Shown: one piece after another, positions 16,759-62,617 of the stretch | Numbering within the stretch: position 1 is the stretch's first letter | How the letters are laid out: each line of letters starts with the position of its first letter | Assembly (NCBI GenBank): GCA_014239955.1 | Contig: JAAZXW010000011.1 | Span: 1 to 64,000 of the forward strand | Direction: 5' to 3' | DNA: 64,000 bases | Source: Methanobacteriota archaeon | Lineage (GTDB): Archaea > Thermoplasmatota > Poseidoniia > Poseidoniales > Thalassarchaeaceae | Program-made: the position numbers and the translations under genes | Notes under the pieces: generated by a model | Database searches by the model: none | Seen by the model: the letters and a program-made list of their open reading frames with translations, nothing else | What the model was told of the DNA's origin: nothing

Positions 16759-16762
16759 CTTC

Positions 16763-42040: not shown

Positions 42041-42049
42041 TTTAGCCCC

Positions 42050-43276: not shown

Positions 43277-43277
43277 T

Positions 43278-44297
43278 CTAATCCTCCTGTGTTTTTGCTA
43301 TTGCCGCCGCGATTCTAGATGGTCCGGGCATGTAATCCCATTCAGTAGTATGGGGGAACGGAGTGTCCCAACCGGCAACCCTCTCAATGGGGGCCTCAAG
43401 GTGATAGAAGCACCTCTCTTGGATGGAAGCTGCCATTTCCGCACCGAATCCACTAGTCTTCGGGGCTTCGTGGACGATCACGCACCTTCCTGTCTTCTCA
43501 ATGGAACTTACAACTGCATCTCTGTCCCATGGCACTAGGGTCTGCATGTCTATCAGATCGCATGAGACGCTGCTGTCCTTGATTGCTTGTTCACAAACAT
43601 GGACCATGGCACCCCATGAAATTACCGTGCAATCATCCCCTTGTTTCGCTAATCTTGCTTGCCCAAGCGGGATTTTATAGTGACTCTCGGGAACTTCTGC
43701 CTCCGGGTGATCTGACCAAGTGGGTACGTTGTGGGGGTCTCCGTAGAAAGGCCCCCTATAGCATCTCTTGGGTTCGAAGAAAACAACTGGATCGTTGCAC
43801 TCAACTGCACTAATTAGCAACCCTTTGGCATTGTAAGGTGTCGAGCAGTAAACAACTTTCAGCCCGGGTGTGTGTGTGAATTGAGACTCGGGGGATTGTG
43901 AATGGTGGTGCCCCCCTCTGATCCCACCACCAGCCGGGGTTCGAAGGGTGACTGGTGACCAAAACTCGCCACCAGACCTATGCCTAACTTTGGCCATCTC
44001 ATTTACAATCTGGTCATAAGCAGGGAAGATGTAGTCGGCGAACTGAATTTCCACTATAGGCCTGAGGCCATTAAGGCCCATCCCAAATGCAGTTGCTGCA
44101 ATTCCGCCTTCCGACAAGGGGGAGTCGAAAACACGATGTTCACCATGCTTCTCTTGTAACCCATCAGTCGTCCTGAAGACTCCCCCGAAGTATCCAACGT
44201 CCTCTCCAAATACGATGACATCAGAGTCATTCTCAAGCAAGTTATCAAGCGCACTATTTAGGGATTGAATCATATTCATGTTGGTCATTTCAACCAC
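43278..44297 (-). CDS. 2-oxoacid dehydrogenase E1 component, beta subunit
   Basis: Transketolase-like pyrimidine-binding and C-terminal domains. Confidence 0.8.
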   Translation of the reverse strand: MVEMTNMNMIQSLNSALDNLLENDSDVIVFGEDVGYFGGVFRTTDGLQEKHGEHRVFDSPLSEGGIAATAFGMGLNGLRPIVEIQFADYIFPAYDQIVNEMAKVRHRSGGEFWSPVTLRTPAGGGIRGGHHHSQSPESQFTHTPGLKVVYCSTPYNAKGLLISAVECNDPVVFFEPKRCYRGPFYGDPHNVPTWSDHPEAEVPESHYKIPLGQARLAKQGDDCTVISWGAMVHVCEQAIKDSSVSCDLIDMQTLVPWDRDAVVSSIEKTGRCVIVHEAPKTSGFGAEMAASIQERCFYHLEAPIERVAGWDTPFPHTTEWDYMPGPSRIAAAIAKTQED

Positions 44298-45525: not shown

Positions 45526-45543
45526 GATGATTTCCTCCTGTAA

Positions 45544-46638
45544 TCATGAATTATCAACCTCTGCTGCAACCAATCTCTCCGATGACAGGATGCGACTAAC
45601 TGCCGAACCAGTCGAGTCACGAGTAACCACTGGTTCGCCCCCGATTGCCTCTTCCCATAGTAGACCTGCCCTATAGCTCGATCTAACTAGGGGTCCGCTA
45701 GCCACTGCACTGAAACCTAGTTCCCTAGCGAAGCTATCCCAATCTGCAAATCTATCTGGCTCCGGAAACCTATCTACTGGGAGGTGTCTGAAGCTAGGTT
45801 GTAGATACTGCCCTAGTGTAATCATGTCCACTCCGGCCCCACGAATCATTTCCATTGCCTCTATGATCTCTTCATCTGTTTCTCCCAAACCAACCATCAG
45901 ACTAGTCTTTGTAAGCAGGTCAGGACGAATTTCCTTTGCCGTTCTCAGAATCTCAAGTGACTGAACAAATGAAGCTCTGTGATCCCGAACAACAATGTCT
46001 AGTCGAGGGACACATTCGACATTGTGTGCAAATACTCTCAGAGGTAATCCATCCAACAGTGCATCCAGGGCCTCGAGATTTCCGTCTAAATCTGAACAAA
46101 GTAGCTCCAATCCGACGTTTGGATTATTCTTCGCAACTTCTATGATACAATCTCTGTAGTGAATCGCCCCGCCGTCTGGTAGGTCATCTCTGTTCACTAC
46201 CGTGATTACTGCATAGCTAAGGCCCATTTTGGATACTGCATCAGCTAACTCACGAGGCTCTTCAGGATTGAGTTTCGAAGGGGTCCTAACAGTTCCGACT
46301 GCACAGAATCTGCACCCTCTGGTGCAGACTTCTCCCGCAATCATGAAGGTCGCCGTACCCCTGCCCCAACAGTCGTGAACATTTGGGCACCTTGCCTCTT
46401 CGCAGACAGTATTCAACCCGTGAGCCAACACATTCTCCTTTGTTTCGTTGTACCTCGACTGAGCTAGACCCGTTGGAAGAGACGTCTTGAACCAAGAAGG
46501 GAGACGCTTCCTCATTTTTTTCCTCTTATTTAGAGGGCTAATTGTAGTCGCACTTCCACAACCTCCAGACACCTCTGTTTCAGAGTCGATGATTGGCAAC
46601 CGCCTCTCCATCGTAATCAACGGATAGAAGAACGACAT
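45544..46638 (-). CDS. lipA: Lipoyl synthase (radical SAM)
   Basis: CEEARCPNVHDCW (auxiliary cluster) and CTRGCRFCAV (radical-SAM CxxxCxxC). Confidence 0.9.
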   Translation of the reverse strand: MSFFYPLITMERRLPIIDSETEVSGGCGSATTISPLNKRKKMRKRLPSWFKTSLPTGLAQSRYNETKENVLAHGLNTVCEEARCPNVHDCWGRGTATFMIAGEVCTRGCRFCAVGTVRTPSKLNPEEPRELADAVSKMGLSYAVITVVNRDDLPDGGAIHYRDCIIEVAKNNPNVGLELLCSDLDGNLEALDALLDGLPLRVFAHNVECVPRLDIVVRDHRASFVQSLEILRTAKEIRPDLLTKTSLMVGLGETDEEIIEAMEMIRGAGVDMITLGQYLQPSFRHLPVDRFPEPDRFADWDSFARELGFSAVASGPLVRSSYRAGLLWEEAIGGEPVVTRDSTGSAVSRILSSERLVAAEVDNS

Positions 46639-46687: not shown

Positions 46688-47467
46688 GTGAGGTCTCTTG
46701 CGCATCACATGCACGGGACAGTTTTGGTAACGGGGGGCGCTAGGAGGATTGGTCGTGAAATATGTTCGAGGCTTTCAGCAGAAGGTTTCCCAGTAGCGAT
46801 CCACTATAGGAATTCCCAACGTGAGGCAAACCTCCTCCTCGAGGAGATAGAGTCCAACGGCGGAAAGGCATGTGCCCTGCATTGCGATCTCAACGATGCC
46901 GATTCTGTGAAAGGCCTGATTAAGAAAGCCACTGAATCATTAGGTGCGGTGGTAGGCATCGTTAACAATGCCTCGTACTTTGCTTTCGACAGAATCGAGA
47001 GCCTCTCCGAAGAAGGATGGTTGGAACATATGAGAGTCAACGCATTCGCGCCCCTAGTCCTAATCGGGGAGTTATCCAAGTCCCCCAAGGAAGGGTCGTG
47101 GGTGGTGAACGTTTTGGATTTCAAGGTAGAATCCCCCAATGCAGATTATCTGTCATATACTAGTTCAAGATTTGCAATGTATGGCTTGACATCTGCACTA
47201 GCAATCGACCTTGCCCCAAGAATCCGAGTCAACTCAGTCGCCCCTGGCCATGTTCTGACTAGCGATGTTCTCGATGAGGATTCTCTCAAACTAGTTCAAT
47301 CCCAATCTCCGCTAGGATTTGGCCCAACTGTTTATGATGTGGCTGAATCAGTAGCTTTCTTGGCCACTTCTCCTTCTATTACCGGCCAAACAATATTCGT
47401 TGACTCGGGGGAGCGCTTTAGGCAGATGTCGCACGATCCAGCATTCGATCAGGAGAATCTCAAATGA
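46688..47467 (+). CDS. SDR-family oxidoreductase, pteridine-reductase (PTR1/FolM)-like; the start is possibly Met 46709
   Basis: VLVTGGARRIGREI resembles the TGxxxRIG motif of the FolM/PTR1 subgroup; overlaps folB by 4 nt. Confidence 0.55.
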   Translation: MRSLAHHMHGTVLVTGGARRIGREICSRLSAEGFPVAIHYRNSQREANLLLEEIESNGGKACALHCDLNDADSVKGLIKKATESLGAVVGIVNNASYFAFDRIESLSEEGWLEHMRVNAFAPLVLIGELSKSPKEGSWVVNVLDFKVESPNADYLSYTSSRFAMYGLTSALAIDLAPRIRVNSVAPGHVLTSDVLDEDSLKLVQSQSPLGFGPTVYDVAESVAFLATSPSITGQTIFVDSGERFRQMSHDPAFDQENLK

Positions 47468-47883
47468 CAATTACTACTCCCCATCTTAGTTCGATAATCG
47501 GAAACCTCGAATCGACGGGATGGACGACCCTGCGGCTTGAAGATGTTGTAATCGAACTAGACATTGGGGCCCATGACTACGAGAAGGGGGTGAAGCAACC
47601 AGTTAGATTCGATATCGAAGTTTTGATCGAAGGCGCCGATGCACCAATTAACGATCACATCGGAGAAGTACTGGATTACGAGTACCTATACCGTTCAATT
47701 GAGTCCGCCATCTCAAAGAGGCATACTCTGGTGGAAACAATTGCTTCATCGATTCTGGATACTATTCTAGAACCAGAGATCGTCGTTGCAGGAGTAGTAT
47801 GCCTGACCAAGGTTTCTCCCATGGGCTTTGATGGGAAGTTTGGGTGCTCATTGGCAAGGGTAAAACCGGACTTAGAGGATTAA
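47464..47883 (+). CDS. folB: Dihydroneopterin aldolase (bacterial FolB type)
   Basis: LRLEDVVIELDIGAHDYEKGVKQPVRFDIEV...GEVLDYEYLYRSI...ETIASSIL matches the FolB tunnel-fold consensus (E..G.....Q......DY). Confidence 0.6.
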   Translation: MTITTPHLSSIIGNLESTGWTTLRLEDVVIELDIGAHDYEKGVKQPVRFDIEVLIEGADAPINDHIGEVLDYEYLYRSIESAISKRHTLVETIASSILDTILEPEIVVAGVVCLTKVSPMGFDGKFGCSLARVKPDLED

Positions 47884-48085: not shown

Positions 48086-51022
48086 GTGCGAAAACGCAAC
48101 ACCGACCCCTCTGTACGTCAAAGTACACTCGTTACTCTCTCACTGGCGTTATTGATGCTGATTCCCGTGGGCTTCGATTTGGAGGCTTCTGAACTGCCCG
48201 ATTCCACGATCCTCAATGCTTCCGAAAGCGCACCAGACGCAAACCTGTACAAACTATACTTCGTCTCGTCCGGACAGAACCAGACTTCTGGAATGGACGG
48301 CCTAATTAGTACCGAACCGCCCGAGGCAGATCAGGATCAGGAAGTAGCCAGTGCTCTGGATGATGACGTCCAATTTATGTCTATTTCATTAATGTCATCG
48401 ATGGAATTTTTTGGCCGGAAGCACCATACAGATAACTCATACTACATTCCGGTTGAACTATTCCTGAAGTCCGAAGGATCCCAGAATTCTAACGTCGATT
48501 GGACCGTCTCAGTAATGACTTCTGAGAGGACTGTTGGCTCCAAAATTTACTCTGGTTCAGTATGCTCTTCTTCATTCGGAAGCAGTTGCGACTTCGACCA
48601 CGAGATTATCGATGTCGAAATAGGCAACTCAGAATCATTCCAAGTTGGAAAGAATGAGAGACTGATTATCAAAGTTAGAGCCAGCATGTCTGGATGCGAC
48701 AGCAGTGATAGCCCATTCGGGGGGTCTTGTACTGCGGACGTCGCCTTCAACAATATCGACAATGAGCCAAACAAATTCTCCAAGATGGAGGCAAACGGCA
48801 ATGCCCTGATGAATAGCATCATTGTTGTCCAGAGGGAAGGGGCAAACATAGCAGAGGGTTCGGAGATTGACTGGTACCCGAATGACATCGTCGAAGACAG
48901 AGAGATGCAGTTCTCGATAGATGCAATTAGTGCATTCGGAAGGGCTGATATCGCCAGGGTAGACATCCTGATGAGGGGTCCGGATGGAAACTACGAGGTC
49001 GACGAGAGGATTACTGGCGACATGGAGGAGATAGAAGACTCCAGCACAGGAATCTTCGGCAAGTTCCCCTATACGTACAATAGCGGGCTCAGCCCCGGTG
49101 AGTATGCAGTGATACTCAAGGTCCGGGATGTCGGTGGAAACGAGATTGAAATTGAGCACGAGCCCATCGAGATGCACCAGTTTGGAGTATCTCTGAAGCA
49201 TAGGTTCGATCGTTCGGTAGAGTACTTCGCACCAGGTAAGGTAACTCCTATCCCCATGGTACTTGTTCATAGAGGCGATTCGACAAAGTCGATGAACGTA
49301 GAATTAGAGGTGCTGACTAATCTAGGAAGCTCTTGGTTGGTTGAGTTCGATTCTCCTGCAGGATATGAGATGAGCTCTGGAGGGTCAGTCATTAATCCGA
49401 CAGTGACTCTAACCGCACCAGATGATCTAACTGGCATGCCGAAGAAGATCGAGATCAGAGCGGTTGCAGAGGCAGATGTGGAGGGGGTAATTTCGGTAGT
49501 CCATCAGGACACTCTCGTACTGGTTGTAGAGAAGGTTGATGTCTATCAGCCCCCCGTGGTCTCAATCTGGTCAGACGACCACAAGATACCGATAGCGAAT
49601 TCTTCCAGGGGTGATGCTCTGGATTCTACCATCCCCAGATTTGCCGAATATGGCGAATTCAACCCCTTCATATTGGAGATTTTCAATACTGGTTTCGATG
49701 CCGATAACTTCCGGATTGACATTCTCAAGAGATCGAAGTCAATCTTCCAGTTGCACGACAATCTCACAGGTCAGCGGATACTTCAGGACGAGGGGGATGG
49801 GACTTTCCACACTCCTTTATTGGAGAGGCACAGCACAAAGGTACTGATTCTCGGTGTGAAGCCAAGCTTGGATAGAGAGGACGAGGACATCGGTGAGATT
49901 GAGATAGAAGTAATCAGCGGCGGCAACGCATCATCATCAACAACCATTTCATTCACAATTCAGAGAACATACGGCATAAGGGGGGAGGTCTCACAAGACT
50001 GCGACGGAACTCCTCTCGGACACATGAAGGTGGCACTATGTGCACCCGGACAGGACAGACCGGTCTTGGACTTCAGGACCAGATTGACGAATAGTGAAGA
50101 CGACTTGGAGGCAGCATCTTGGTGGCTATTGCAAAACCCTGCTTCGTTGAATGAGAACACCGATCGAAACTCAGCCTACGGGCAATGGGAATTCAGGATC
50201 ACAAACTCAGACGGAGAGGCCGTCCCTCGAGTCTCCCTGGGTCCGGGGGACTTCACTGAGGTCTACATCAGCGTAACTCTGACGAACCAGGTAGAGGTCG
50301 GCAACCATACTGTTTTCTTGAGAATTTCCGAGGACATAGAAGACGACGATCCAAGATATTTCGATCTCCCGATGACATTCGAAATTGAAGCAGATCAACC
50401 AATGCTGGAGATCGTCCAAGTTTCCCAGAATACAAAACTTGCACCTGGTAATGACTACTCGATTCAAATGAAGGTGAAGAACGAAGGAAACAGTCCTATG
50501 ACCGTTCTCCTTGAAGCTGACGTTGATGAGAATGGATGGGATGTCAGTATCGGCGGCCTGTCGGGTTCGCCCCTGATTGAAATCGAAGCGTTCGACGAAG
50601 CCACCTTCACAGTCGAAATCTCCGTCTCAAGTTCCGCAAATAATGGGGATTCAATTCCGATTTCTGTAACTGCAACCCCACTGGATACGGATCAGAGCTT
50701 CTCAGAGTCTTTAACGGCTAAGTTCACTTTGACAGTAATTGTTGAGATAGGCTCTTTCGTTGACATCATAGTTAACGAAATGTCTCACCCCAGACCAATC
50801 ACTCTTGTTTTGGTGCTAGTAAGCGTACTATTGCTGTTTGCAGGTGTTCAGAGCAGGCTCAATAGGAGAAGATGGGCAGCACAGATGAGAGCGATAGAGT
50901 CACTTTCTGAGGATGAAACAGAGTCTCAAGAAAACACGCCAGAGATACCTGCCCCAGTTACAGTTATGGATGAGCCGAAGGGTGTGGAAAGATACGACGA
51001 TGACGATGTAGAGCTGATGTAA
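48086..51022 (+). CDS. Large cell-surface protein (978 aa): N-terminal signal/anchor, beta-rich extracellular region, C-terminal TM helix and an acidic cytoplasmic tail
   Basis: GTG start; N-terminal hydrophobic LVTLSLALLMLIPVGF; C-terminal ITLVLVLVSVLLLFAGV followed by RLNRRRW and an Asp/Glu-rich tail. Confidence 0.5.
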   Translation: MRKRNTDPSVRQSTLVTLSLALLMLIPVGFDLEASELPDSTILNASESAPDANLYKLYFVSSGQNQTSGMDGLISTEPPEADQDQEVASALDDDVQFMSISLMSSMEFFGRKHHTDNSYYIPVELFLKSEGSQNSNVDWTVSVMTSERTVGSKIYSGSVCSSSFGSSCDFDHEIIDVEIGNSESFQVGKNERLIIKVRASMSGCDSSDSPFGGSCTADVAFNNIDNEPNKFSKMEANGNALMNSIIVVQREGANIAEGSEIDWYPNDIVEDREMQFSIDAISAFGRADIARVDILMRGPDGNYEVDERITGDMEEIEDSSTGIFGKFPYTYNSGLSPGEYAVILKVRDVGGNEIEIEHEPIEMHQFGVSLKHRFDRSVEYFAPGKVTPIPMVLVHRGDSTKSMNVELEVLTNLGSSWLVEFDSPAGYEMSSGGSVINPTVTLTAPDDLTGMPKKIEIRAVAEADVEGVISVVHQDTLVLVVEKVDVYQPPVVSIWSDDHKIPIANSSRGDALDSTIPRFAEYGEFNPFILEIFNTGFDADNFRIDILKRSKSIFQLHDNLTGQRILQDEGDGTFHTPLLERHSTKVLILGVKPSLDREDEDIGEIEIEVISGGNASSSTTISFTIQRTYGIRGEVSQDCDGTPLGHMKVALCAPGQDRPVLDFRTRLTNSEDDLEAASWWLLQNPASLNENTDRNSAYGQWEFRITNSDGEAVPRVSLGPGDFTEVYISVTLTNQVEVGNHTVFLRISEDIEDDDPRYFDLPMTFEIEADQPMLEIVQVSQNTKLAPGNDYSIQMKVKNEGNSPMTVLLEADVDENGWDVSIGGLSGSPLIEIEAFDEATFTVEISVSSSANNGDSIPISVTATPLDTDQSFSESLTAKFTLTVIVEIGSFVDIIVNEMSHPRPITLVLVLVSVLLLFAGVQSRLNRRRWAAQMRAIESLSEDETESQENTPEIPAPVTVMDEPKGVERYDDDDVELM

Positions 51023-51098: not shown

Positions 51099-54000
51099 AT
51101 GAAGTTCGTAATTTCAAATTACGAAGATTCCGACCCCATGGTCAAGAAGAGGTCCGCTACACTGCTAACCTGCTTACTACTCATGTCTGGAATCGCTTCA
51201 ATGCAGATCACAGTCTTCGAGGTTTCTGCTACTGTCAACGACCAAGATGCCGACGGTTTACCATACGGGATTGAGTTCCTAATTAACACCCAGCCCCAGG
51301 ATTGGGACTCTGATAATGACGGACTCCCAGATGGATGGGAATGGCAATATGGACTAGACCCACTTTCTTCATCTGGCGACAATGGATCGACAGGAGATCC
51401 CGACTCCGACGGCCTGACAAATCTGAATGAGTATCTTTACGGGATTCCTTCAGGCTGGGACGAGCCTTCTACTACGAATATCTTAGACAATGGGGTATGG
51501 TGGAATGGCACGATACCCGTTTCCAACTGGGACGAAGAGAGCGCAATGCAAGTGATTCAGGGTTCTGGATCAGACGGTGCCGACGAGGACCCGGTGGGCA
51601 ACATCTGTACTGACACGTTCGACAACGATCACGATGGGATGGTTGACTCAAATGACGGTGACTTTGATGGAGATGCGGACTGCAGCTCCAATGATGACGA
51701 TGGGGATGGAATTGCCGATGAGGATCCCAACGGATGGGACACCGATGGAGATGGGATGCCAGATGGATGGGAGGCGGCAAACGGATTGGATCCAACCTCT
51801 AATTCTAATCAAGACGGAACCTTCGGTGATCCCGATTTCGATGGGCTATCAAACATTTACGAATATGTCAATCCTGCATGGGGGACTAGAAATGGATCTA
51901 CATTCCCTCCAACGCAGTACTTCAGGCCAGGCCCAATCAATATGACTGTCACAGAGTCGCCCTGCAATCCAGTACTTTCGCTTGGCCCTGGAGGCTGTAC
52001 CATTTTTACCTCCGAGGTCGATGGAATTACTCAGACTGATCCGCAGAACAACGATACAGATGGAGATGGCTTGAACGACTCGTTAGAGGCTCTCGTCTTG
52101 TTGACCGACCCAACTTCGCCCGATACGGACTCCGACGGCATTTCTGATGGAGTCGAATTCAATGGCTCATACGGTGATCCTGCACAAGGTTCAGACCCAA
52201 GAAGCAACAATACGGATGGCGATCATCTGGATGATGGAGAAGAGGATCTGAATGGTAATGGGGTGATTGACACAGGAGAGACGGACCCAACTAGGATAAA
52301 TGACGAAGGGGACTTCGATGGTGATGGGATTCAAAACTGGGAAGAAAACAACTCCTGCACCCTATGGAACGTCTCAGATTCTGATGGCGGTGGAATCAGT
52401 GACGGCAACGAAGGCTTCCCCGGTCAGACGGATCCTTGTACTTCCATTTTCGATCTAGTCTTCACAATCATTTCTTGGGACGGTGATGCAGATACTCTCA
52501 CCATCAATTCCACTGTGGGGATCAATCCCGATCCGGCGGATTGGAGGGGGGACGTTCCGATGGCATATTTCGTCGCACCCAATGGGACACGCACACCGTT
52601 TACCTATGCATCTCTAGAGGATCCTTCATTCTTGAAAGGCGTGGATACCGAACCACCAATCGGAGCCAATGCGATTTTGTTCACGAATGGATCTTGGTGC
52701 TGGAACGTGTCTGCCAATGCTACCAATGACCCATGGTGCGATGATGACTACAAGGACTCAGATGGCGACGGGCTAGCAGACTGGGAGGAGTTGACTGCAA
52801 CCTGGGGATTCCTTTCGGATCCGACCCTTTTCGATACCGATGGTGATGGTGTCAATGACTTATCCGAGATTCTTAACCTCACAGATCCAAGGGAGCCTTG
52901 TGACAATCTCCTCGATACCGATGATGACGGCCTCAACAACTACTTCGAGAACACCACTGGTTGCTCGATGATTTTCGGGATCGGTGGCTTTGGCTTCGGT
53001 GGCAACTTCACTTCGGACGTTTGGTTTACTCTCTGGAACTTAGCCGATTCCGACAATGGAGGCGTTGACGATGGACAGGAATACCTCGATGGGACCAATC
53101 CCCAAGATAATCCGGACGACGATATCAATCCTCTAGATACCGATGGTGATGGAATCCCTGATTTGATTGAGCAGGAGCTTGGTACTGACTGGCTTGACCC
53201 TGACTCGGATGGAGGGGGTGTTCCCGATGGCGAAGAGTGCACAGAAGACTTCTGGGCCCTGGATTGTATCGGATCTCCGGGAGATCCATTCGATCCCATT
53301 GACGACATCCAGGAGAACGCACTAATGTTCACAGCAACCAATACCTCGGGAGGGATGGATCCCACCGTCAAACACTACTGGAGGTGGCATACTTACGACT
53401 TCTACACCGGAGTCTCATGGGGGGTCAATAGCACCCTAGTTGGGAATACCCAAGTTACTCCCGAATTCTCCACAGATCAAGGCGTGGCAGACCAGTCTTT
53501 CTGGAATCACTCCGGAGCACTTTCTTGGGAGATAATATTCGAAGGTGCCGGAAACATAGGGCCGGGTCAAGAACTCATACAACCCTATAATGTGGTCAAT
53601 TACACGACATGGGTGGATATTGCCGCGGGCCTCAACTTCTCCAACTACACTAGGGACATTATCGTGGATAGTGCCGTTGTGGAGGCCCTATATGTCAACG
53701 CTCCCGAAGTGATATTGTCCGCCGCAATCCGTGAAAACACCACAGTTTTCGCAAATTCTGATTACGGAAAGGATCTCCCTCAAGACTTCACGGATAACTC
53801 TGGTTTTGTTACGAATCTAACTCAGGACGTGCTGGACCAATCCGGAGCGATATCCGCATGGGACAAGATCTCCGCCATTCAGGACTTCATAGTGAACGGT
53901 AACGATACAATCTCTTTCCTTAGGAATCATTACGGTTCAGGAAGGACAAATGGGTTGGGGGTCGATAGCGATGTCACTCATTGGATTCTAAACTCTTCGA

Positions 54001-57000
54001 GAGAGGGAAACTGTGACGAGTTCACTTCCATCTTCGTGACCATGCTTAGAATAGCAGGAATCCCCGCTCGCAAGGTCACCGGTTTTTCTGGTGGCTCATG
54101 GGACGGCAAGGCATTCAACGTGTACGGTAAAGACTTCACAAGATGGGCGGAGGTTCATCTGCAGACAAACCAGAACCAGGGGGAACTGGACCTTGGTTGG
54201 ATCCCGTTCGAAGCATGTCCCCCTATTTCTGAAGTGATGGTCAATGTGGAATCTTGGGGTCCAACAGTAGTTGAGAGAAATACAACGATATCTGACTCAA
54301 TCTGGGTGGAGGGAACTCTGGAGTTTGTAGATAACCAAACCCTTGTGGAAAATATCTCTCTATTCATGTACTTGGTCGAACCGAGTAAATCCGACGAGGT
54401 CCCCGGAAGCGCTGCCATCGAAGAACATCTGGTGGCTAACGTAACTACGGATGCCAATGGTTCGTTCAATCTGACAGGGCTCCCCTCACAAGTTATCCAA
54501 CCAGGATTCGGGTCTCTGGTAATCCTGACTACCGAGAAGGGTTATGTTGGAACACAAGGAATTTCCATGCCATGGCAGGTCAACATCACAGATAATGTGT
54601 CAATTTCGATAACTAGCCCAATCCCGATTGGACAACCAATGCTAGGGATTGGGGTAAATTCGTCAATTACCGGACAATTGTCTTGGGCTAGCTCCCCCTA
54701 CCTGGACCCATCAATCGCAGATGATCTACAGGTCGTGCTAAACTATTCTTCGAGTGTAGATGGCGAGATATCAATTGTTTCAGGTGTTTCGGGTGGTGGT
54801 TACTACGAGTTCATCGTCCCAATTGACGAGACAGAACCACTCGGCCTGATGGATGCTGCTCTTTCCTTCCAAGGTTGGCATTTCGATGATATGAACAACG
54901 CGACGCCTCCTGCCTACCATGCCCGACCAGGCTCCTTCCCCTTCATGTTCAACATTACTCTTTCTCCAAATCTATCCGTTGAAATCGAGTCCCAGGGCGC
55001 AAATAACTCAATTCTTGAGATTGGAAGCAACATCTATCTGAATGGTACAGTTCTCAGTAGAGGGCCCTCTCCAACTCCCCTAAATGGGACTCTGATACTC
55101 GAGATGCGCAGAGCCGACATCTCCGGTCCCTTTGTCGAACTTTCCTCTTGGTATCTCAACAACTCATCATGGGGCGCGTCGCCGGGAGACTTCTCCATAT
55201 CGTGGCCATTCTCAGCTTCCGAAGTCCCTCTACCCGCAGGTCCAGTTGATGTGCGAATGCAGTTCGACTCGGATGACTTGAATTCGAACGATCAAGAGCA
55301 ATTTGTCGATACCTTCGGAATCAGAAGTTTCGTAGTTTTCGACTATGAACTCATCTTCGCAATCAGAGGACGGGAGTACGCAGTAGACGTATTCATGGAG
55401 GACCATACCGGCTCATCATTCGCTTCATTTGAGGGTGAATACACCCTTCTTTTCGATGGTGATAACGTTTGGAATCAAACCGATCCGGAAGCGGGGAGGA
55501 TCACACCGACGTTCACGCCTTTGTTCAACATGGATCCCGGTGACTATGATTGGAATCTCAGCTATAGCGGTTCAACTTGGCTCATCCCCAATTCTACATC
55601 TGGTTTACTTAGGGTTCGTGGGATGGCCAATGCATCTGTGAGCATCTCTGACGAGTGGTCTGTTAGGGGTTCGACAAATTGGATATCTGGATTCGCTAGC
55701 GATATGGTGCTGCAAAACCAGGTCATTGGAAACAACTCTTCCGTTGTGGCACAGCTCCTGTTGCCATCTGAACTGCCTACTACCCCTGGAGGTTTCCCTG
55801 CCGCCGGTCCGATTTACAACATTGCAAACGGTTGGGTGGATGAAGCAACCGGTGCCTACAACCTTTCATTCGAGATACCACAGGGAGTCCCATCGGGAGT
55901 TTATGAGATCGATGTCACCCTGAGTTTCTCGGGTAATCCTCCTGCAGGGGGGGGCTACTACAATGCAGGTGATCCCACAACAATCCAAATTGGAGTTCAG
56001 ACAGAGTTTGTCATCGAGACGGATCCCACAGCCTCGATCATAACTGCCGGTGAGCAATTGCTCCTTGAGTCCGTAGTGACCGATGTTGAGGATCCCAGTG
56101 AAATGCTCTCTGGCGTCGCTTTGGACCTCTATTTCGATTGGGGCGGGCCGCTCGAGACTATCCTTCAGTCTGGAACTACTAATTCAGAGGGCATGGTTTC
56201 CTTCGACCCTGTTGTCCCTTCTTCTGCTCCACCGGGATTCTATGATATTCGAGTGCACGCTCCAGACGACCTTTCCGATTCCCTTAGCACACCCGAAGCA
56301 GGCAGGTGGCTCGGGAACGAGAGCTTCGTTAACCTCACCGTCCAGGTAGCTAGCACGGTTGATATATCCTCGATTCCAACCCAAGTGACTGCACTGCAAT
56401 TCTTCAACCTGGTCGGTACCGTGATGGATTCTGCAGATATCAACAGGACCGTAGATGGCCCCGTGGGGATCAACGTCTTCTTCCTAGACGAGCCCGATGA
56501 GCTCCTGATTGATAACCAAACTACGAATATGTCAGGCGGATTCAACCTCACCGTTCCCACTGATACTCTAGGAAACGGTGTCCTGAGGGGCGACAGAACC
56601 GTGGTCGTCAGCGTCGTCAGCGGCTCTACTCCATTCTACCTCACAGGTAACGGGGACGCATCCATACTAGTGATCGGCGTGTCCCAGTTCGTCGATTCTA
56701 ATCCATTCGTCAATACCATCGTAGACAGAGGCCAATCGGCTACCATGACAACCAGACTTGTCGAGTTCAGCAACAACGAGGAGCCACTTTCCAGTTTCGA
56801 AGTCATGGTCCTTTTCCATGATACATGGCTTGATCCTGAAGTTACTGCAGCCGATGGCAGTGTCGCATTTGAATTCGAAATTCCTCACGACCACCCACTT
56901 GGCCTTGTGAATGTCACCTTCGTCTTCAACGGTTCCGAAGACCTCCACCAGGCAGTACAGATTCTGAATACAATCACTGTTAGATCTTCAACCACTATGG

Positions 57001-60000
57001 TGATCGATCCAATCACTGCCAATCCTCTTCCCGGGGAGTTCTTCAATGTGACTGGTTCTCTTACTTCTAGTAATGGGACTGGACTCTCTGACGCTTCAGG
57101 AAACTCGCTGAACCCTACATTGACATTCTCAATTGACGATGAAACCAGTACATTCACCGTATCTCAGGTTTCATTCCATTCGGATGGAACTTGGTCCGCC
57201 GAACTGAGACTCGACTTATCTTTCCAAAGGGGTCCACACGGATTGGAGGTATCTTTCACGCCCCAAGTAACATATTTCTCTTCAGCATCTGGGTTTTCCA
57301 CTTTCGATAGTAGGGGTTATTCGGTTCTAGCTATAGACAACCCGAATGACCTGGATCCGGACAACAGGACAATCAGGGGCGAAACATTCGACATCGACCT
57401 TTCCCTAATAGACAACGCAGGCGGACCCGTCTCTTCCGCTATAATCGTAGTCAGGATCGACAACATCACCGTTTGGGGCGGGCTGACCGATTCAAACGGG
57501 ACCGCTTCAGCATCAATACTCGTCAGACCCGACAGAGATCCCGGACCAATGGTGGTCACAGCCACATTCTCTGGCATCAATGGTACGATTGGCCTTCTTG
57601 GCGACGAGACATGGACAAGGGTCGTCGTCTTGGCCCCCACTGACTTGTTCCTGAAACAGGCATCCTCGCCTTCCATAGCAGGCGAGTCAGTAACACTCGT
57701 GGGCTCACTCTTGGATGAGAGGAATCAGATGCTGAAGGAAGATGGCAACTTTAGTGGTGGGCTAATCCACTTGTACATAGATGGAATTGATGTAGGCTCT
57801 GCTTACACCACATTCTCCAATGGAACCACAGGACAGTGGTCGATAACTTACCTCATTCCTGCAGATATGAACTTCGGTTCCCATACCGCTCGCGTCGACT
57901 TCCTGGGTGGCTTCTCATGGGTCGACCCTATGGGCCAAGGGGACTCCCTGAATCCAGAATACTACCTGCCTTCTTCGGATTCAATGGCGTTCAATGTGAC
58001 TCAAACCTCTCAAGTAGTCATCTCAACATCTCCAGCCGATATCGACAGGACCGGAGTGGCAATCGTCGAAGGGATGCTAACCGATGGCGTCGGTCGAGCC
58101 ATCCCAAACAGGGATCTCATCTTGTCAGTCAATGGAAATGAAATCACTGGTATTTCTGTGGACGAGAACGGATCATTCATCGGTTTCGTTCCAATCGCAC
58201 CCGACATGCCATTGGGGCCAATGCTAGTCGGAATAGAGTTCGCTGGCGAGGCCTTCATACTCCCATCAAACTCCTCTGTCGCCTTCGCCATCTATGCTCC
58301 CGTGTTCGTGGCGATGGACCAACCAAGTCCCATCGCGGTAGGAGATTCCATGGTTATTTCTGGTTCTGCAAAGGACAACTTGGAGAACGGTTGGCTCGGG
58401 AGCCATACAATCGAGGCCTTCGTGGACGGGGTCCTAGTGGGTATTACTAGCAGCCAGGAAAACGGCAACTGGTCAATTGAGTGGACAATTCCGGAGTCAA
58501 TGGAAGTTGGCAACCACTCGATATCTGCAATCTCCCCTGCTCAGGGATTCTACAGGCAGGGCGGCACCGAGTCAAATTTCACGGTCTCGTACCATACTTC
58601 GATATCCCTCCAGGTCGAACAGACCTATGTCACACGCGGCGGTCACTGGAACTTCTCTGGCAGGCTTTTCGAATCGGACACCGGATTTGAGCAGGGCCTG
58701 GAGGGGAGGGCGGTCTCAGTACTATTGGATGGGGTGCCCGTGGAACTGATTTCCACAGAAGAAGGGGGGATCTTCTCTTACAGCCACAGGGCAAAGTACT
58801 CATTGAGCAGGGGTGTGCATAATCTCTCTTTCCAGTTTGAGGGGGAGTTCCTCTATCTTCCCACCACGTTCGTTTCATCGGTTTTTGTCTTGTCAGACAT
58901 AGTGGTTGAGATCCAGCCGATTACCAACACAATTGTTCGTGGAGACGCATCCCCATCCAATTCCATCATGATACAGGGACTAGTTCGTGAGGTCGGCGGT
59001 GAATCCGCAATCTTCGACAATCTTTCCATGAGCCTTACTTGGGGGGATTCGAACCTCCCTCTAACATCTGGGCCATGGGATAACCCAAGCACGATGAACT
59101 TCCAGATTCGGGCCAAGGCTCAAGAGTTCATGCACCCGGGTGAGAACGTCATCACCATAGTGGTTGGTTCTGATCAGACAAGGTTCCTGAACGGCGCATC
59201 TCGGAATATCGAAATATTGGTTATGATCGAGGTTGACTTCGTCTACTCTGAACTTGATCTCTCAAACGGTCAGAGGGTAATCAGGGGCACGGTAAACGCT
59301 ACTGCTAGGGATACGGGGGCGCCCCTAGAGGGTCTCTCACTAACTGCCAGCCTGGCCAATGGCAGCGTCACCCATTTCTCAGTCTCCAAGCTGACTGGGG
59401 CAGATGGCGTCTTCGAGTACGAGTTCAAGGCAATGTCCCCACTTCCAGCGTTTTCCGAACAGGAACTCCCCCCAGTGGGATGGGGGCTTCTCAGTGTGAT
59501 GATCGGGTCGGACTCCGAGTTCATTGCCCCGGGCAGCCTCTCCCTCCTGCCTTCATCGGGGGTCCCGATAGCCTACGAGAAGCAGGAAGGGGGCTCATTC
59601 TTTGGCAGCACCACAGTAGCACTCGGGGCACTCGTGGTCGCTACAATCGCCATAGCCCTCGGTGCTTTGGCATTCAACACAAAGAGGAAGTCAACGATCA
59701 GGGAGCTCGCAAAGGTTCTTGGCCAGACAGTTGAGATGTTGGCATCAGGGGACGAATACCGAAGGGCGATTTTCCTCTGCTACGAGAATCTATGCTCAGT
59801 GCTGATGCGTCGGGGTTTCCTTCGTAGGAACTTCGAAACAGTTCGAGAGTTTGAGTCCGCAATCAGGGAAGCATTGCCTATCAGCGAGGCCTCATTGGTC
59901 TCTCTTGACCGAATCTTCGAGGAGGCCCGATACTCAAGCCATGTTCTGGGAGATGCCCATAGGGACAATGCACAACTAGCGCTCTCATCTGTCATGCAGG

Positions 60001-60062
60001 AGATAGAGGAAATGCAGGATATTCCGGAGAGGGGGCCACTTCAAATTGAGATGGACGAGTAG
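51099..60062 (+). CDS. Giant surface protein (2987 aa). Domain order: signal peptide, about 15 thrombospondin type-3 (DxDxDGxxDxxE) calcium-binding repeats, a transglutaminase-like cysteine-protease core, a long array of Ig-like beta domains, a single TM helix, and a cytoplasmic DUF4129-like domain
   Basis: TSP3 repeats such as DSDNDGLPDGWE and DTDGDGIPDLIE; transglutaminase-like core GNCDEFTSIFVTMLRIAGIPARKVTGF...RWAEVHL...GWIPFEA; TM helix TVALGALVVATIAIALGALAF; C-terminus RRGFLRRNFETVREFESAI...LDRIFEEARYSS resembles DUF4129. Confidence 0.6.
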   Translation: MKFVISNYEDSDPMVKKRSATLLTCLLLMSGIASMQITVFEVSATVNDQDADGLPYGIEFLINTQPQDWDSDNDGLPDGWEWQYGLDPLSSSGDNGSTGDPDSDGLTNLNEYLYGIPSGWDEPSTTNILDNGVWWNGTIPVSNWDEESAMQVIQGSGSDGADEDPVGNICTDTFDNDHDGMVDSNDGDFDGDADCSSNDDDGDGIADEDPNGWDTDGDGMPDGWEAANGLDPTSNSNQDGTFGDPDFDGLSNIYEYVNPAWGTRNGSTFPPTQYFRPGPINMTVTESPCNPVLSLGPGGCTIFTSEVDGITQTDPQNNDTDGDGLNDSLEALVLLTDPTSPDTDSDGISDGVEFNGSYGDPAQGSDPRSNNTDGDHLDDGEEDLNGNGVIDTGETDPTRINDEGDFDGDGIQNWEENNSCTLWNVSDSDGGGISDGNEGFPGQTDPCTSIFDLVFTIISWDGDADTLTINSTVGINPDPADWRGDVPMAYFVAPNGTRTPFTYASLEDPSFLKGVDTEPPIGANAILFTNGSWCWNVSANATNDPWCDDDYKDSDGDGLADWEELTATWGFLSDPTLFDTDGDGVNDLSEILNLTDPREPCDNLLDTDDDGLNNYFENTTGCSMIFGIGGFGFGGNFTSDVWFTLWNLADSDNGGVDDGQEYLDGTNPQDNPDDDINPLDTDGDGIPDLIEQELGTDWLDPDSDGGGVPDGEECTEDFWALDCIGSPGDPFDPIDDIQENALMFTATNTSGGMDPTVKHYWRWHTYDFYTGVSWGVNSTLVGNTQVTPEFSTDQGVADQSFWNHSGALSWEIIFEGAGNIGPGQELIQPYNVVNYTTWVDIAAGLNFSNYTRDIIVDSAVVEALYVNAPEVILSAAIRENTTVFANSDYGKDLPQDFTDNSGFVTNLTQDVLDQSGAISAWDKISAIQDFIVNGNDTISFLRNHYGSGRTNGLGVDSDVTHWILNSSREGNCDEFTSIFVTMLRIAGIPARKVTGFSGGSWDGKAFNVYGKDFTRWAEVHLQTNQNQGELDLGWIPFEACPPISEVMVNVESWGPTVVERNTTISDSIWVEGTLEFVDNQTLVENISLFMYLVEPSKSDEVPGSAAIEEHLVANVTTDANGSFNLTGLPSQVIQPGFGSLVILTTEKGYVGTQGISMPWQVNITDNVSISITSPIPIGQPMLGIGVNSSITGQLSWASSPYLDPSIADDLQVVLNYSSSVDGEISIVSGVSGGGYYEFIVPIDETEPLGLMDAALSFQGWHFDDMNNATPPAYHARPGSFPFMFNITLSPNLSVEIESQGANNSILEIGSNIYLNGTVLSRGPSPTPLNGTLILEMRRADISGPFVELSSWYLNNSSWGASPGDFSISWPFSASEVPLPAGPVDVRMQFDSDDLNSNDQEQFVDTFGIRSFVVFDYELIFAIRGREYAVDVFMEDHTGSSFASFEGEYTLLFDGDNVWNQTDPEAGRITPTFTPLFNMDPGDYDWNLSYSGSTWLIPNSTSGLLRVRGMANASVSISDEWSVRGSTNWISGFASDMVLQNQVIGNNSSVVAQLLLPSELPTTPGGFPAAGPIYNIANGWVDEATGAYNLSFEIPQGVPSGVYEIDVTLSFSGNPPAGGGYYNAGDPTTIQIGVQTEFVIETDPTASIITAGEQLLLESVVTDVEDPSEMLSGVALDLYFDWGGPLETILQSGTTNSEGMVSFDPVVPSSAPPGFYDIRVHAPDDLSDSLSTPEAGRWLGNESFVNLTVQVASTVDISSIPTQVTALQFFNLVGTVMDSADINRTVDGPVGINVFFLDEPDELLIDNQTTNMSGGFNLTVPTDTLGNGVLRGDRTVVVSVVSGSTPFYLTGNGDASILVIGVSQFVDSNPFVNTIVDRGQSATMTTRLVEFSNNEEPLSSFEVMVLFHDTWLDPEVTAADGSVAFEFEIPHDHPLGLVNVTFVFNGSEDLHQAVQILNTITVRSSTTMVIDPITANPLPGEFFNVTGSLTSSNGTGLSDASGNSLNPTLTFSIDDETSTFTVSQVSFHSDGTWSAELRLDLSFQRGPHGLEVSFTPQVTYFSSASGFSTFDSRGYSVLAIDNPNDLDPDNRTIRGETFDIDLSLIDNAGGPVSSAIIVVRIDNITVWGGLTDSNGTASASILVRPDRDPGPMVVTATFSGINGTIGLLGDETWTRVVVLAPTDLFLKQASSPSIAGESVTLVGSLLDERNQMLKEDGNFSGGLIHLYIDGIDVGSAYTTFSNGTTGQWSITYLIPADMNFGSHTARVDFLGGFSWVDPMGQGDSLNPEYYLPSSDSMAFNVTQTSQVVISTSPADIDRTGVAIVEGMLTDGVGRAIPNRDLILSVNGNEITGISVDENGSFIGFVPIAPDMPLGPMLVGIEFAGEAFILPSNSSVAFAIYAPVFVAMDQPSPIAVGDSMVISGSAKDNLENGWLGSHTIEAFVDGVLVGITSSQENGNWSIEWTIPESMEVGNHSISAISPAQGFYRQGGTESNFTVSYHTSISLQVEQTYVTRGGHWNFSGRLFESDTGFEQGLEGRAVSVLLDGVPVELISTEEGGIFSYSHRAKYSLSRGVHNLSFQFEGEFLYLPTTFVSSVFVLSDIVVEIQPITNTIVRGDASPSNSIMIQGLVREVGGESAIFDNLSMSLTWGDSNLPLTSGPWDNPSTMNFQIRAKAQEFMHPGENVITIVVGSDQTRFLNGASRNIEILVMIEVDFVYSELDLSNGQRVIRGTVNATARDTGAPLEGLSLTASLANGSVTHFSVSKLTGADGVFEYEFKAMSPLPAFSEQELPPVGWGLLSVMIGSDSEFIAPGSLSLLPSSGVPIAYEKQEGGSFFGSTTVALGALVVATIAIALGALAFNTKRKSTIRELAKVLGQTVEMLASGDEYRRAIFLCYENLCSVLMRRGFLRRNFETVREFESAIREALPISEASLVSLDRIFEEARYSSHVLGDAHRDNAQLALSSVMQEIEEMQDIPERGPLQIEMDE

Positions 60063-60063
60063 G

Positions 60064-60519
60064 TCAATCCAACTTGATGGAGATGACTTCTCCTTCCCAA
60101 ATCGCACCAGAGACAACCCTCTCCTTTGGAAGACGGAATGACCTGAGCATCCCCCCGAAATTCTCGGGTGCTACAATACGGACTATCTGGGAAACGCCAT
60201 CACTCTTCGTGTCGACGGTAAACTCGTCCCTGTTGGTTGCTGGCAATGGGAGTCTGATTTCAGACTCAGACCACTCTCCACCGAACTCTGAGACAAATTC
60301 TCCTAGGGTGGACACAGAGTCTCTGAGGGCCCTAGACTCGATTTCCGAGGCCACTACTCCATGCATCTCCTGAACTTCCGAGAGATGGGGTAGAGAATTC
60401 AGGAACTCTTTGTGCATTGACTCCGCATCCGTATCCAGACCCACCTTCAGGTCGGCTAATCCGCCTGCTCTATCGATGATGGCTTCATCGGATTGGACAT
60501 CGACCCTCGTCCACTCCAT
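60064..60519 (-). CDS. Hsp20/alpha-crystallin-like small heat-shock protein (tentative)
   Basis: C-terminal ...SFRLPKERVVSGAIWEGEVISIKL resembles the sHsp F.LP..V....A...GVL.I..PK ending; weak. Confidence 0.35.
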   Translation of the reverse strand: MEWTRVDVQSDEAIIDRAGGLADLKVGLDTDAESMHKEFLNSLPHLSEVQEMHGVVASEIESRALRDSVSTLGEFVSEFGGEWSESEIRLPLPATNRDEFTVDTKSDGVSQIVRIVAPENFGGMLRSFRLPKERVVSGAIWEGEVISIKLD

Positions 60520-60559: not shown

Positions 60560-62617
60560 TCAAATCTCGAAGAATGCCTTGACCCGCTCTGCAGTTCTAG
60601 TGGGTTTCGATGTCTGCATCGTCTGCATCTCCGGCATGCAGTCGCTGACTCTCCTTTCTAGCAGCCTCTTCTCCAAGAGAATCACAATGGCTCTGTCCTC
60701 TTTCTTCCTTATCGGCCTACCAAGGGCCTGCAATATGCTGTTAACGGCAGGCTGGAGGCTTGCGTACTTCCATGCTCTGCTCCTATCAAATTTCTTCGTA
60801 TAGTATTCCAACAGAGCATCCTGTCTGGCGCTTGGTGGGGGGAGGGGTAGACCTACGCAAACTAGAGCATTCAGGACGTTGTCAGAGTAGTCGACTCCCT
60901 CGGACAGTTTCCCACTAAGAACGCCAAAAAGTGCCGCTCCCCTCATATCTCTCTGTTCATAGAGTCTCGAAATCAAACCTTCAACCCTAGCTTTGCTCAT
61001 TCGTTGTTCTTCCTTGACGATCGTCTTTGGGCACCACCCGCTTTTTTCGAATTCCCCATGAATCCTACCAAGCATCGAATAGCTAGGAGCAAAGACCGCA
61101 ACATTCCCTTTCGTATTATCGATCACTGATTTAATGTGGCCAATTATCGATGAAAAACTACTTTCTCGTTCCGTTAACTTGCTAGTCACGTCGCTCGCAA
61201 TCAGTACTGGCCTGTTTCCAAGAGGGAACCCCGATGAATACTGGTGACATGTAACCCTATCTCCAGGTATGCCAAGAATCTCTGCGTACATTTCTGGAGG
61301 GAATAGAGTTCCCGACATCAGTATCGAGCCCAGGCATTTTTCAAAGATGGGCTCGCCAACAACGCTTGGATCTAGAAGATGACTTGTCACTCGGGGATTT
61401 TCCAGTAATTCATCGAAGACCAATGCCAATGCGGCATTTTTTCGATATCTTATGCATATTTCCAGAATCTCCGCCAGTCTAGTGCATTCGTTCTGTTCTT
61501 CATCGTCAAGATCATCATCTTCTTCGATAACTACCGCCAATAATCTTGAGATCATCATCCTGATTCTGTAAATTATATCCTCTGAATCTTCCTCTAGAAC
61601 GCCTTCAATCGCCTGTGAAATGATGTCCAAGAAATCTTGAGTTGCTACTCTGATGTCATCTCCTTTGGACCTCTGGTTTTCTGATTTCTTTTCTTTAAAC
61701 CATTTCCTCATCCTCGAATCTTCCTTCAATGCCTTGATTTGCTTTTCTAGATTCATAGCGTCCCTAAGCTTATTGGATTCTGGAATATCAAGCTCACGCT
61801 CACGCTTCTCCAAGTTTTCCTTATACTCTTCAACATTCGACAGTGCCCTCTGAAAGACTTGTTCTGTTACCCTCCTCTGCAGTCCATTCCTAATCCGATT
61901 GGGGAGGTTGTGGGCCTCGTCTATTATGATGATTGTATTTTCCAAATCCACTCCCATCACTGGTAGTGAAGCCTCTCTTACCCCTTCCACGAACACGTGA
62001 TTGTAGTCACAGACAATTATGTCCGTGGATTTGGCTGCTTCTCTCGCTGTTGCCCAAGCGCAAACATCTGTCTTCTTGACCCGCTTCAGAATCTGATCAA
62101 CATGTCGCGGATCGGAATGAATGTACTCTTCCAGATCAGATCTTAGAAACCTCCTCTCAGACTCGGTGACCCCTACTTCACAATTGCATTTCCCAGTAGA
62201 CCTGTCCACTACCTTGCACATGCCTTCCCTTCCGATGATGTCGACCACCTTTACTCTGGAGAATCCAGGTGGCAATCTCTTGTTTATCTCTCGAATTGTA
62301 TCAACAACTATTCTGTGTTGAGATTGCCTACCCGTCAGAAACAATATTTTGGGAATTTCAGGATTCGTACTGTACATATTAGCCGCATTGAGTGCAGATG
62401 CTAGAGCCGCCGCCGTCTTTCCAATTCCTGTAGGTGCCGCCGCCAGTAGGAAACCTCCTCCCTTCAATGACTCAATTCCATCCGAGATCATCCTTATTTG
62501 GGACTCCCGAGGGGATTCATGAGCGAAGAATAGACTGCCATTGGCCTCTACTTCGCTCGACATGGAGCCGTACTGGGAAATTGACCGTCCATAAGTTTGC
62601 ATCCCGATTTTCAGCAT
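60560..62617 (-). CDS. XPD/Rad3-family 5'-3' DNA helicase (SF2 with an FeS domain); the true start is possibly Met 62563 (MSSEV...FFAHESPRESQ)
   Basis: AAPTGIGKTAAAL (motif I), DEAHN (motif II), FeS cysteines C-x11-C-x-C...C, and C-terminal SGTL/QALGRPIR helicase motifs. Confidence 0.8.
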   Translation of the reverse strand: MLKIGMQTYGRSISQYGSMSSEVEANGSLFFAHESPRESQIRMISDGIESLKGGGFLLAAAPTGIGKTAAALASALNAANMYSTNPEIPKILFLTGRQSQHRIVVDTIREINKRLPPGFSRVKVVDIIGREGMCKVVDRSTGKCNCEVGVTESERRFLRSDLEEYIHSDPRHVDQILKRVKKTDVCAWATAREAAKSTDIIVCDYNHVFVEGVREASLPVMGVDLENTIIIIDEAHNLPNRIRNGLQRRVTEQVFQRALSNVEEYKENLEKRERELDIPESNKLRDAMNLEKQIKALKEDSRMRKWFKEKKSENQRSKGDDIRVATQDFLDIISQAIEGVLEEDSEDIIYRIRMMISRLLAVVIEEDDDLDDEEQNECTRLAEILEICIRYRKNAALALVFDELLENPRVTSHLLDPSVVGEPIFEKCLGSILMSGTLFPPEMYAEILGIPGDRVTCHQYSSGFPLGNRPVLIASDVTSKLTERESSFSSIIGHIKSVIDNTKGNVAVFAPSYSMLGRIHGEFEKSGWCPKTIVKEEQRMSKARVEGLISRLYEQRDMRGAALFGVLSGKLSEGVDYSDNVLNALVCVGLPLPPPSARQDALLEYYTKKFDRSRAWKYASLQPAVNSILQALGRPIRKKEDRAIVILLEKRLLERRVSDCMPEMQTMQTSKPTRTAERVKAFFEI

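Follow-up and report, generated by a model that had tools for sequence, protein, structure and literature searches.

The window analyzed here is a 64,000-nucleotide (nt) stretch of DNA (positions 1 to 64,000 of contig JAAZXW010000011.1) from an archaeon of Candidatus Thalassarchaeaceae (Marine Group II b, Poseidoniales), in which a single open reading frame (ORF) at 51099-60062 on the plus strand encodes a giant surface protein of 2987 amino acids (aa). We focused on a transglutaminase-like (TGase-like) domain within this protein, which carries a Cys at the nucleophile position but lacks the catalytic His. The protein contains 9% Asp and 0.8% Lys, has a pI of about 4, and bears 80 NxS/T sequons. 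Its predicted topology is that of a type-I membrane-anchored surface protein, with the following features.

51159..51218, plus strand: N-terminal hydrophobic segment, aa 21-40, after KKR (Kyte-Doolittle scan)
51234..53288, plus strand: predicted distal head, aa 46-730 (thrombospondin-type-3-like motifs, Cys pairs, regional identity)
Between the head and the TGase-like domain: linker
53760..54233, plus strand: TGase-like (papain-fold) domain, aa ~888-1045 (PF01841, AlphaFold2, Foldseek)
54234..59603, plus strand: predicted membrane-proximal stalk, aa 1046-2835, ~1800 aa with zero Cys (weak Pfam signals, Cys map)
59604..59678, plus strand: transmembrane helix, aa ~2836-2860, followed by the stop-transfer sequence NTKRKS (hydrophobicity scan)
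59778..59981, plus strand: predicted cytoplasmic DUF4129 domain, aa 2894-2961 (PF13559, 25.8 bits versus a cut-off of 24.8)

Fold and domain order of the giant protein

The TGase-like domain matches the Pfam family Transglut_core (PF01841) over aa 951-1039 (profile positions 42-108) with an E-value of 1.4e-12 and a score of 48.3 bits versus a cut-off of 23, and its orthologs P0060 and P0061 likewise match PF01841. By sequence, the best relative of solved structure is TgpA (6g49), which was found with an E-value of 0.003 from the single sequence and of 7e-7 with a profile. We made an AlphaFold2 model of aa 851-1140, which has a mean predicted local distance difference test score of 76 (73-95 in the core blocks). 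When this model was searched with Foldseek, TgpA (6g49) was the top match (E = 3.8e-7, root mean square deviation of 3.0 Å over 152 columns), and further matches were to TGase-like "putative cysteine proteases," 3isr, TglA, TG2, and factor XIII. The core helix of the model begins at model residue 122, which is Cys972, and strands 140-146, 163-172, and 181-187 follow. A sequence-only reading of this DNA had proposed a TGase-like core inside the giant protein, and the PF01841 match together with the structural match to TgpA bears this out far beyond chance. The three strings on which that proposal was built are real and lie in the frame of the 2987-aa ORF between 54001 and 54240: GNCDEFTSIFVTMLRIAGIPARKVTGF begins at aa 970 (nt 54006), RWAEVHL corresponds to aa 1015-1021 (nt 54141-54161), and GWIPFEA corresponds to aa 1033-1039 (nt 54195-54215), so that the quoted motifs span nt 54006-54215. 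The slice 54001-54240 is itself off the codon boundary, and its own frame-1 translation therefore contains stops. By sequence threshold, by fold, and by the position of its Cys, each of which we tested, the domain belongs to the transglutaminase-like superfamily.

The regions around the domain differ in composition and in conservation. The hydrophobic segment at aa 21-40 may act as a signal peptide or as a signal anchor. The head contains eight strict thrombospondin-type-3-like, putatively Ca-binding motifs (DxDxDGxxDxx[DE], by motif count) between aa 70 and 691; the Pfam family TSP3_bac scores 23.5 bits in the giant protein, slightly below its cut-off of 25, and 27.4 bits in the ortholog P0060, and the NCBIfam CglD/MtsD families give partial matches to the head. 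We note that the eight motifs are interspersed with six conserved pairs of consecutive Cys and that the conservation of this region exceeds that of the TGase-like domain. In the stalk, sub-threshold Pfam matches to MG2 and CarboxypepD_reg were detected, with bMG3/MG2 matches in the ortholog P0061, and the first stalk module is all-beta in the AlphaFold2 model; together, these signals suggest that the stalk may be built of beta-sandwich or Ig-like modules. The DUF4129 domain is also present in P0060, P0061, and P0063.

Full-length orthologs of the giant protein are 2701-3088 aa long and 32-66% identical to it. By region, identity to the orthologs is 44-79% for the head, the most strongly conserved region, 53-66% for the DUF4129 tail, 30-67% for the TGase-like domain, and 26-60% for the stalk. 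The comparison of the last two values indicates that the TGase-like domain is under purifying selection and not decaying. The predicted topology is that of a long fiber in which the stalk would adjoin the membrane and the TGase-like module and the head would be held at the far end. Overall, the giant protein appears to be an adhesin-like, glycosylated surface fiber conserved across Poseidoniales, with a putative adhesive or binding role; thrombospondin genes have been cited as evidence of cell adhesion in Poseidoniales (PMC6461757).

The catalytic positions of the domain

The positions in the domain that bear on catalysis are the following.

54012..54014, plus strand: Cys972, nucleophile position and first residue of the core helix (alignments, AlphaFold2 model)
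54138..54140, plus strand: Thr1014, position of the catalytic His in H-x-W-x-E (TgpA alignment, MAFFT, tabulations)
54156..54158, plus strand: His1020, the His picked by the sequence-only reading (profile tabulation, AlphaFold2 model)
54210..54212, plus strand: Glu1038, position of the triad Asp in G-W-x-x-F-[DE] (profile tabulation)
54216..54218, plus strand: Cys1040, clade-specific, at the Thr of D-P-T (comparison of clade and canonical columns)

Cys972 aligns with the nucleophiles of TgpA, factor XIII (Cys314), TG2, and PNGase, as the sequence-only reading had proposed for the Cys, and it is invariant wherever this position is covered in the 42 clade domains. The same reading had taken the His of RWAEVHL as the second landmark of the active site, but this residue is His1020, and it fails to align with the catalytic position. 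In the HMMER alignment, QFDAHAWVE of TgpA is paired with GKDFTRWAE of the giant protein, which places the catalytic His at Thr1014, two residues before the Trp, and a MAFFT alignment with the canonical domains P0053 (SHAWPE), P0055 (AHAWVE), and P0059 (KHAWAS) gave the identical register. When the clade profile was aligned to 200 collected proteins, 371 domain hits were obtained; in about 250 of them, the profile position of Thr1014 is occupied by His, and nearly all of these have Trp two residues on. Within the clade, by contrast, this position is never His: it is Thr in 24, Ser in 6, Ala in 4, Asp in 3, and Asn, Arg, or Leu in 1 each of the 42 domains, the remaining 2 of which do not cover it. 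Among the matches listed for the 79 closest species-level genomes, it is Thr in 64, Ser in 14, and Lys in 1, again never His. A sequencing or assembly error at Thr1014 was considered and is excluded by these 79 independent genomes.

His1020 lies six residues past the His position on the same strand (model strand 163-172). A standard triad of Cys972, His1020, and Glu1038, with Glu in place of Asp, was implicit in the sequence-only reading, and all three residues do exist and are conserved in the 79 closest species-level genomes. However, six residues along a strand place His1020 roughly 20 Å from the canonical His position, and the canonical domains have a core residue at this site (Tyr in 108, Ala in 54, Leu in 11, and Pro in 9 of 197), which suggests that the position serves core packing and not catalysis. 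Across the clade, the site is His in 24, Arg in 11, and Lys in 4 domains, with Gln, Asn, Tyr, or Pro in others (these counts, like those for Glu1038 below, include three His-bearing domains of other families with Cys at D+2), so the His is conserved among close relatives only and gives way to Arg, Lys, Gln, Asn, Tyr, or Pro in the more distant orthologs. The alignments to TgpA and to the roughly 250 canonical domains contradict this triad, and we consider it highly improbable.

Glu1038 does occupy the position of the triad Asp, but the suggestion that Glu makes the site non-canonical does not hold up. In 80 neighboring domains that have both the Cys and the His, the third position, where alignable, is Glu in 55 and Asp in 25 (e.g. 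GWVTFEPTP), and in a survey of papain-like enzymes, the third residue is normally Asn, Gln, Asp, or Glu (PMC10318531). Glu1038 is thus ordinary, and the missing His is the real anomaly of the sequence. As for its conservation, Glu1038 is kept in 79 of 79 Thalassarchaeaceae genomes, a set in which the sequences are at least 60% identical and for which the search pattern itself required [ED]AC; across the clade, the acid position varies more widely (Glu in 22, Asp in 18, Gln in 3, Lys in 1, and Asn in 1).

A column-by-column scan of the clade revealed no conserved His or other new polar residue apart from Cys1040. This includes a migrated His or a compensating base of the kind found in GP42, MTG, Tgl, and DUF1839, which was looked for and rejected, none being conserved in the clade. 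The residues that are conserved in common with the canonical domains (D958, G970, R984, P989, R991, G995, W1016, E1018, G1033, W1034, and P1041) are fold-determining. We also considered an alpha-2-macroglobulin-type CxEQ thioester at Cys972, prompted by the weak MG2/bMG3 matches, and rejected it because the motif C-[DASEQRTK]-[EQD]-[FY] is the ordinary start of a TGase helix and not CGEQ. Further, we note that the two "catalytic" strands are joined by a loop, (L)QTNQNQGELDLG (aa 1021-1033, ~54159-54197), that is longer than in canonical domains and has Asp at position 1031 in 39 of 41 clade domains. This well-conserved loop could be a clade-specific binding site or Ca site.

The second cysteine and the likely fate of the active site

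The residue that sets the clade apart is Cys1040: this position is Cys in 42 of 42 clade domains, as compared with Thr, within D-P-T-P, in 40 of 43 canonical domains. The ectodomain has exactly 14 Cys, which fall into seven consecutive pairs (170/195, 289/300, 420/447, 534/547, 601/622, 714/723, and 972/1040). The first six pairs lie in the head, 972/1040 is the seventh and last, and the 1850 residues after Cys1040 contain zero Cys. When six full-length orthologs were aligned with the giant protein by MAFFT, nearly all 14 Cys were seen to be kept in every ortholog, down to 32% identity. Because paired, conserved, extracellular Cys are a signature of disulfides, Cys972 and Cys1040 can be taken as the seventh pair. 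Comparison with TG2 makes the proximity of the two plausible. In TG2, Thr360 forms, together with Trp241 and Trp332, the active-site tunnel over the nucleophile Cys277, and Thr360 is strictly conserved in the active human transglutaminases (PMC13073648). Cys1040 corresponds to Thr360, and a thiol at this tunnel position should therefore lie close to Cys972, the more so when the imidazole is replaced by Thr, Ser, or Ala. Thus, the Cys pattern and the analogy with TG2 suggest that Cys972 and Cys1040 probably form a disulfide across the former active site.

We favor the reading that the domain is a pseudo-enzyme with a TGase fold, i.e. a non-catalytic scaffold or binding module, which has lost its base and kept Cys972 through a disulfide with Cys1040, and to which we assign a probability of roughly 60%. 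In such a domain, replacement of the general-base His by Thr1014 would have dismantled the catalytic apparatus, and the acid position (Glu1038) would have been freed from strict constraint across the clade. Cys1040, in place of the tunnel-lining Thr, would form a structural disulfide with Cys972 and close the former active site, and the nucleophile would be retained for this structural role. With the thrombospondin-like head (putatively Ca-binding and rich in disulfides) on one side and the stalk devoid of Cys on the other, the domain would be a stable, rigid scaffold or a ligand-binding module near the tip of an adhesin-like fiber. This reading builds on what was observed directly, namely the fold, the way the three positions align, the patterns of conservation, and the order of the domains; loss of activity, the disulfide, the topology, and an adhesive or binding role are predicted from it. 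It agrees with the second of two options offered by the sequence-only reading, a "catalytically dead binding module."

Several points weigh against it. An invariant Cys and a third residue that is acidic in 40 of 45 domains would also fit a working Cys-carboxylate enzyme; Bacillus Tgl and Streptomyces MTG are Cys/acid transglutaminases that lack a catalytic His (PMC10318531); and Glu1038 and His1020 are both kept throughout the 79 Thalassarchaeaceae genomes, with the limits of identity and search pattern given above. The alternative to which these points lead is a variant active enzyme, in which Cys972 would be activated by the carboxylate of Glu1038 or Asp, possibly via a hydroxyl relay through Thr/Ser1014, and which would act on extracellular or S-layer proteins by cross-linking, deamidation, or cleavage, with Cys1040 lining the acyl tunnel. 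A hydroxyl residue is indeed present in 30 of 42 clade domains (Thr or Ser at the His position), DUF1839 (C-(T/S)-H) provides a papain-fold case without a canonical His beside the Cys/Glu of Tgl and the Cys/Asp of MTG (PMC10318531), and TgpA, the closest solved relative, has measured TGase activity (PMC3507681). However, the carboxylate of Tgl and MTG occupies the His position, which here is Thr, Ser, Ala, Asn, Arg, or Leu and is acidic in three domains only, and Ala, Arg, Leu, or Asn at this position would abolish the relay. Another conserved base is absent from the column scan of the clade, the third position allows Gln, Lys, or Asn in some orthologs whereas both Cys never change, and the pairing pattern of the Cys suggests that Cys972 is oxidized. 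We regard an active variant of this kind as unlikely.

The two Cys also allow a redox-gated or thiol-exchange module, in which a reversible Cys972-Cys1040 disulfide would switch residual activity or capture thiol ligands and in this way bring about covalent adhesion. Both Cys are invariant and lie at or beside the former active site, extracellular TG2 is switched by a Cys370-Cys371 disulfide near its active site (PMC13073648), and the protein, by its predicted topology, would face the oxic surface seawater that Poseidoniales inhabit (PMC6461757). The argument is purely analogical, however; the remaining six Cys pairs resemble normal structural disulfides, and the gene neighborhood (2-oxoacid dehydrogenase, lipoylation, and folate genes and an XPD helicase) contains no thioredoxin-like partner. 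A module of this type seems to us quite improbable. With respect to the pseudo-enzyme reading, a more specific history would be that the nucleophile was "captured": upon loss of the His, a second Cys would have replaced the tunnel Thr and given rise either to a 972-1040 disulfide across a dead site or to a reversible redox-gated or covalent-adhesion module. We put this forward tentatively, at a little short of even odds. If true, it would represent a distinct route to a pseudo-enzyme and, if the disulfide were reversible, a redox-gated extracellular transglutaminase or a covalent-adhesion module in archaea. For enzymologists, the invariant Cys pair offers a clean, testable case of how repurposing of a papain-fold active site may proceed.

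The public name "transglutaminase domain-containing" invites the inference of cross-linking or protease activity. Because the clade as a whole lacks the catalytic His, metabolic or ecological inferences from this annotation should not assume catalysis. The giant protein is likewise not to be classed among the active transglutaminases or cysteine proteases, since the defining His was tested for and is absent. Poseidoniales, which are still uncultured, are the dominant planktonic archaea of the surface oceans (PMC6461757); the giant protein is probably a main contact point of their cells with particles, algae, or viruses.

Distribution, gene neighborhood, and known systems

A relative of the giant protein was found in at least 168 species-level genomes in a pattern scan with one genome per species, and all 80 loci among the matches listed are Poseidoniales-type metagenome-assembled genomes. 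One locus (L002) is 99% identical over the TGase-like domain. The full-length orthologs came from an exhaustive representative search, whereas word-indexed searches gave almost only gene fragments. In a syntenic long-read assembly from ENA (L001, 7695-16642), we observed that gene calling splits the ortholog of the giant gene into at least six ORFs (775, 386, 722, 491, 484, and 78 aa), presumably through frameshift errors, and that many "short" TGase homologs in the protein database (P0001-P0059) are such gene fragments and not small proteins. The exact protein is present in NCBI, and the other members of its cluster bear the names "hypothetical protein," "transglutaminase domain-containing protein," or "DUF4129 domain-containing transglutaminase family protein." Public annotation thus already records the domain; in the literature searched, we found no description of a His-less, double-Cys variant fixed throughout Poseidoniales and no paper linking Marine Group II archaea with transglutaminase.

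The genes that surround the giant gene in the window are the following.

38734-46638, minus strand: lipoate/2-oxoacid dehydrogenase cluster (class-V aminotransferase, LplA/B-type lipoate ligase, E3, E2, E1-beta, E1-alpha, LipA)
46688-47883, plus strand: short-chain dehydrogenase/reductase (SDR), scoring best on the pteridine-reductase-like NF006597 (254 bits, below the cut-off of 281), and a 139-aa ORF
48086..51022, plus strand: 978-aa surface protein with a signal-like segment, a C-terminal transmembrane helix, and an acidic tail (weak CARDB/NEW3/FixG_C/"choice-of-anchor T"-like matches)
60064-60519, minus strand: 150-aa ORF without a Pfam match, between the giant gene and XPD/Rad3
60560-62617, minus strand: XPD/Rad3 helicase gene

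The gene order around the giant gene is the same in L001, in which genes of the lipoate/2-oxoacid dehydrogenase cluster also flank the giant gene and the position of the 150-aa ORF is conserved (16668-17114, 148 aa). The 978-aa protein has a 940-aa counterpart in L001 (4794-7616), where it likewise immediately precedes the giant gene, and the two surface proteins may form a conserved surface-protein pair and be partners. The 139-aa ORF overlaps the SDR gene by 4 nt, and its counterpart in L001 matches FolB (PF02152); the two may constitute a small pterin or folate gene pair. MoxR, DUF58, and transglutaminase genes occur as a triad in bacterial and archaeal operons. Neither a MoxR AAA+ ATPase gene nor a DUF58 gene was detected in the window or in syntenic L001.

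Of the known systems, TgpA of Pseudomonas aeruginosa (PA2873; 6g49/6g4h) is the best match to the domain by both sequence and fold. The giant protein resembles TgpA-type proteins in having an outward TGase-like domain followed by a transmembrane helix and a C-terminal DUF4129 domain. TgpA-type TGase-like proteins usually have DUF4129 at the C terminus, and "DUF4129 domain-containing transglutaminase family" is exactly the name that cluster mates of the giant protein bear in NCBI. However, TgpA retains the triad and TGase activity (PMC3507681), whereas the giant protein has Thr in place of the His and Cys in place of the Thr of D-P-T. It is also several-fold longer than TgpA, the periplasmic construct of which comprises aa 180-544 (PMC3507681), and adds the thrombospondin-like head and the ~1800-aa stalk. 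Unlike the TgpA-like P0053, which has PF11992 upstream of PF01841, the giant protein has no detectable PF11992 and one N-terminal hydrophobic segment only.

A second set of relatives comprises giant proteins with several TGase-like domains. P0063, P0067, and P0070 are 2-3 kaa (thousand aa) long and have three to four TGase-like domains, HEAT repeats, Ig-like domains, and a DUF4129 tail, with F-E-P-T or F-D-P-T at the third position; they share with the giant protein the TGase core, CarboxypepD_reg/MG2/Big modules, and the C-terminal DUF4129. They differ from it in that the domain is present in several copies, most of which have both Cys and His (H-Q-W-A-E) and no Cys at D+2, with Cys replaced by Ser, Ala, or Gly in some. 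The nearest canonical relatives as a whole (P0063, P0065, P0067, P0070, and P0074-P0090) are 1.5-3.3 kaa long, with 3-7 tandem TGase-like domains, HEAT, Ig-like, and DUF4129 domains. We note that, within one such chain, the Cys is often replaced by Ser, Ala, or Gly in the first copies and later copies have C/H/(E|D), so that apparently dead and live domains are mixed.

With respect to the absent His, the giant protein is like Bacillus Tgl, Streptomyces MTG, Phytophthora GP42, and DUF1839, in which the canonical His is gone from its usual strand position (PMC10318531). Those proteins, however, conserve a compensating residue (an acidic one, Glu or Asp, in the His position; a His adjacent to the Cys; or a His in the third position), and none is conserved here. 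The systems that the favored pseudo-enzyme reading most resembles are Band 4.2 (EPB42), FBXO21, and the Rad4/XPC-type repair scaffolds, in which the TGase fold is kept, catalysis is broken, and the role is structural or one of binding (PMC13073648, PMC10318531). The giant protein differs from these inactive scaffolds in its archaeal, extracellular context, and, unlike Band 4.2, which is described as without any of the triad (PMC13073648), it loses only the His, keeps an invariant Cys, and gains an invariant Cys neighbor.

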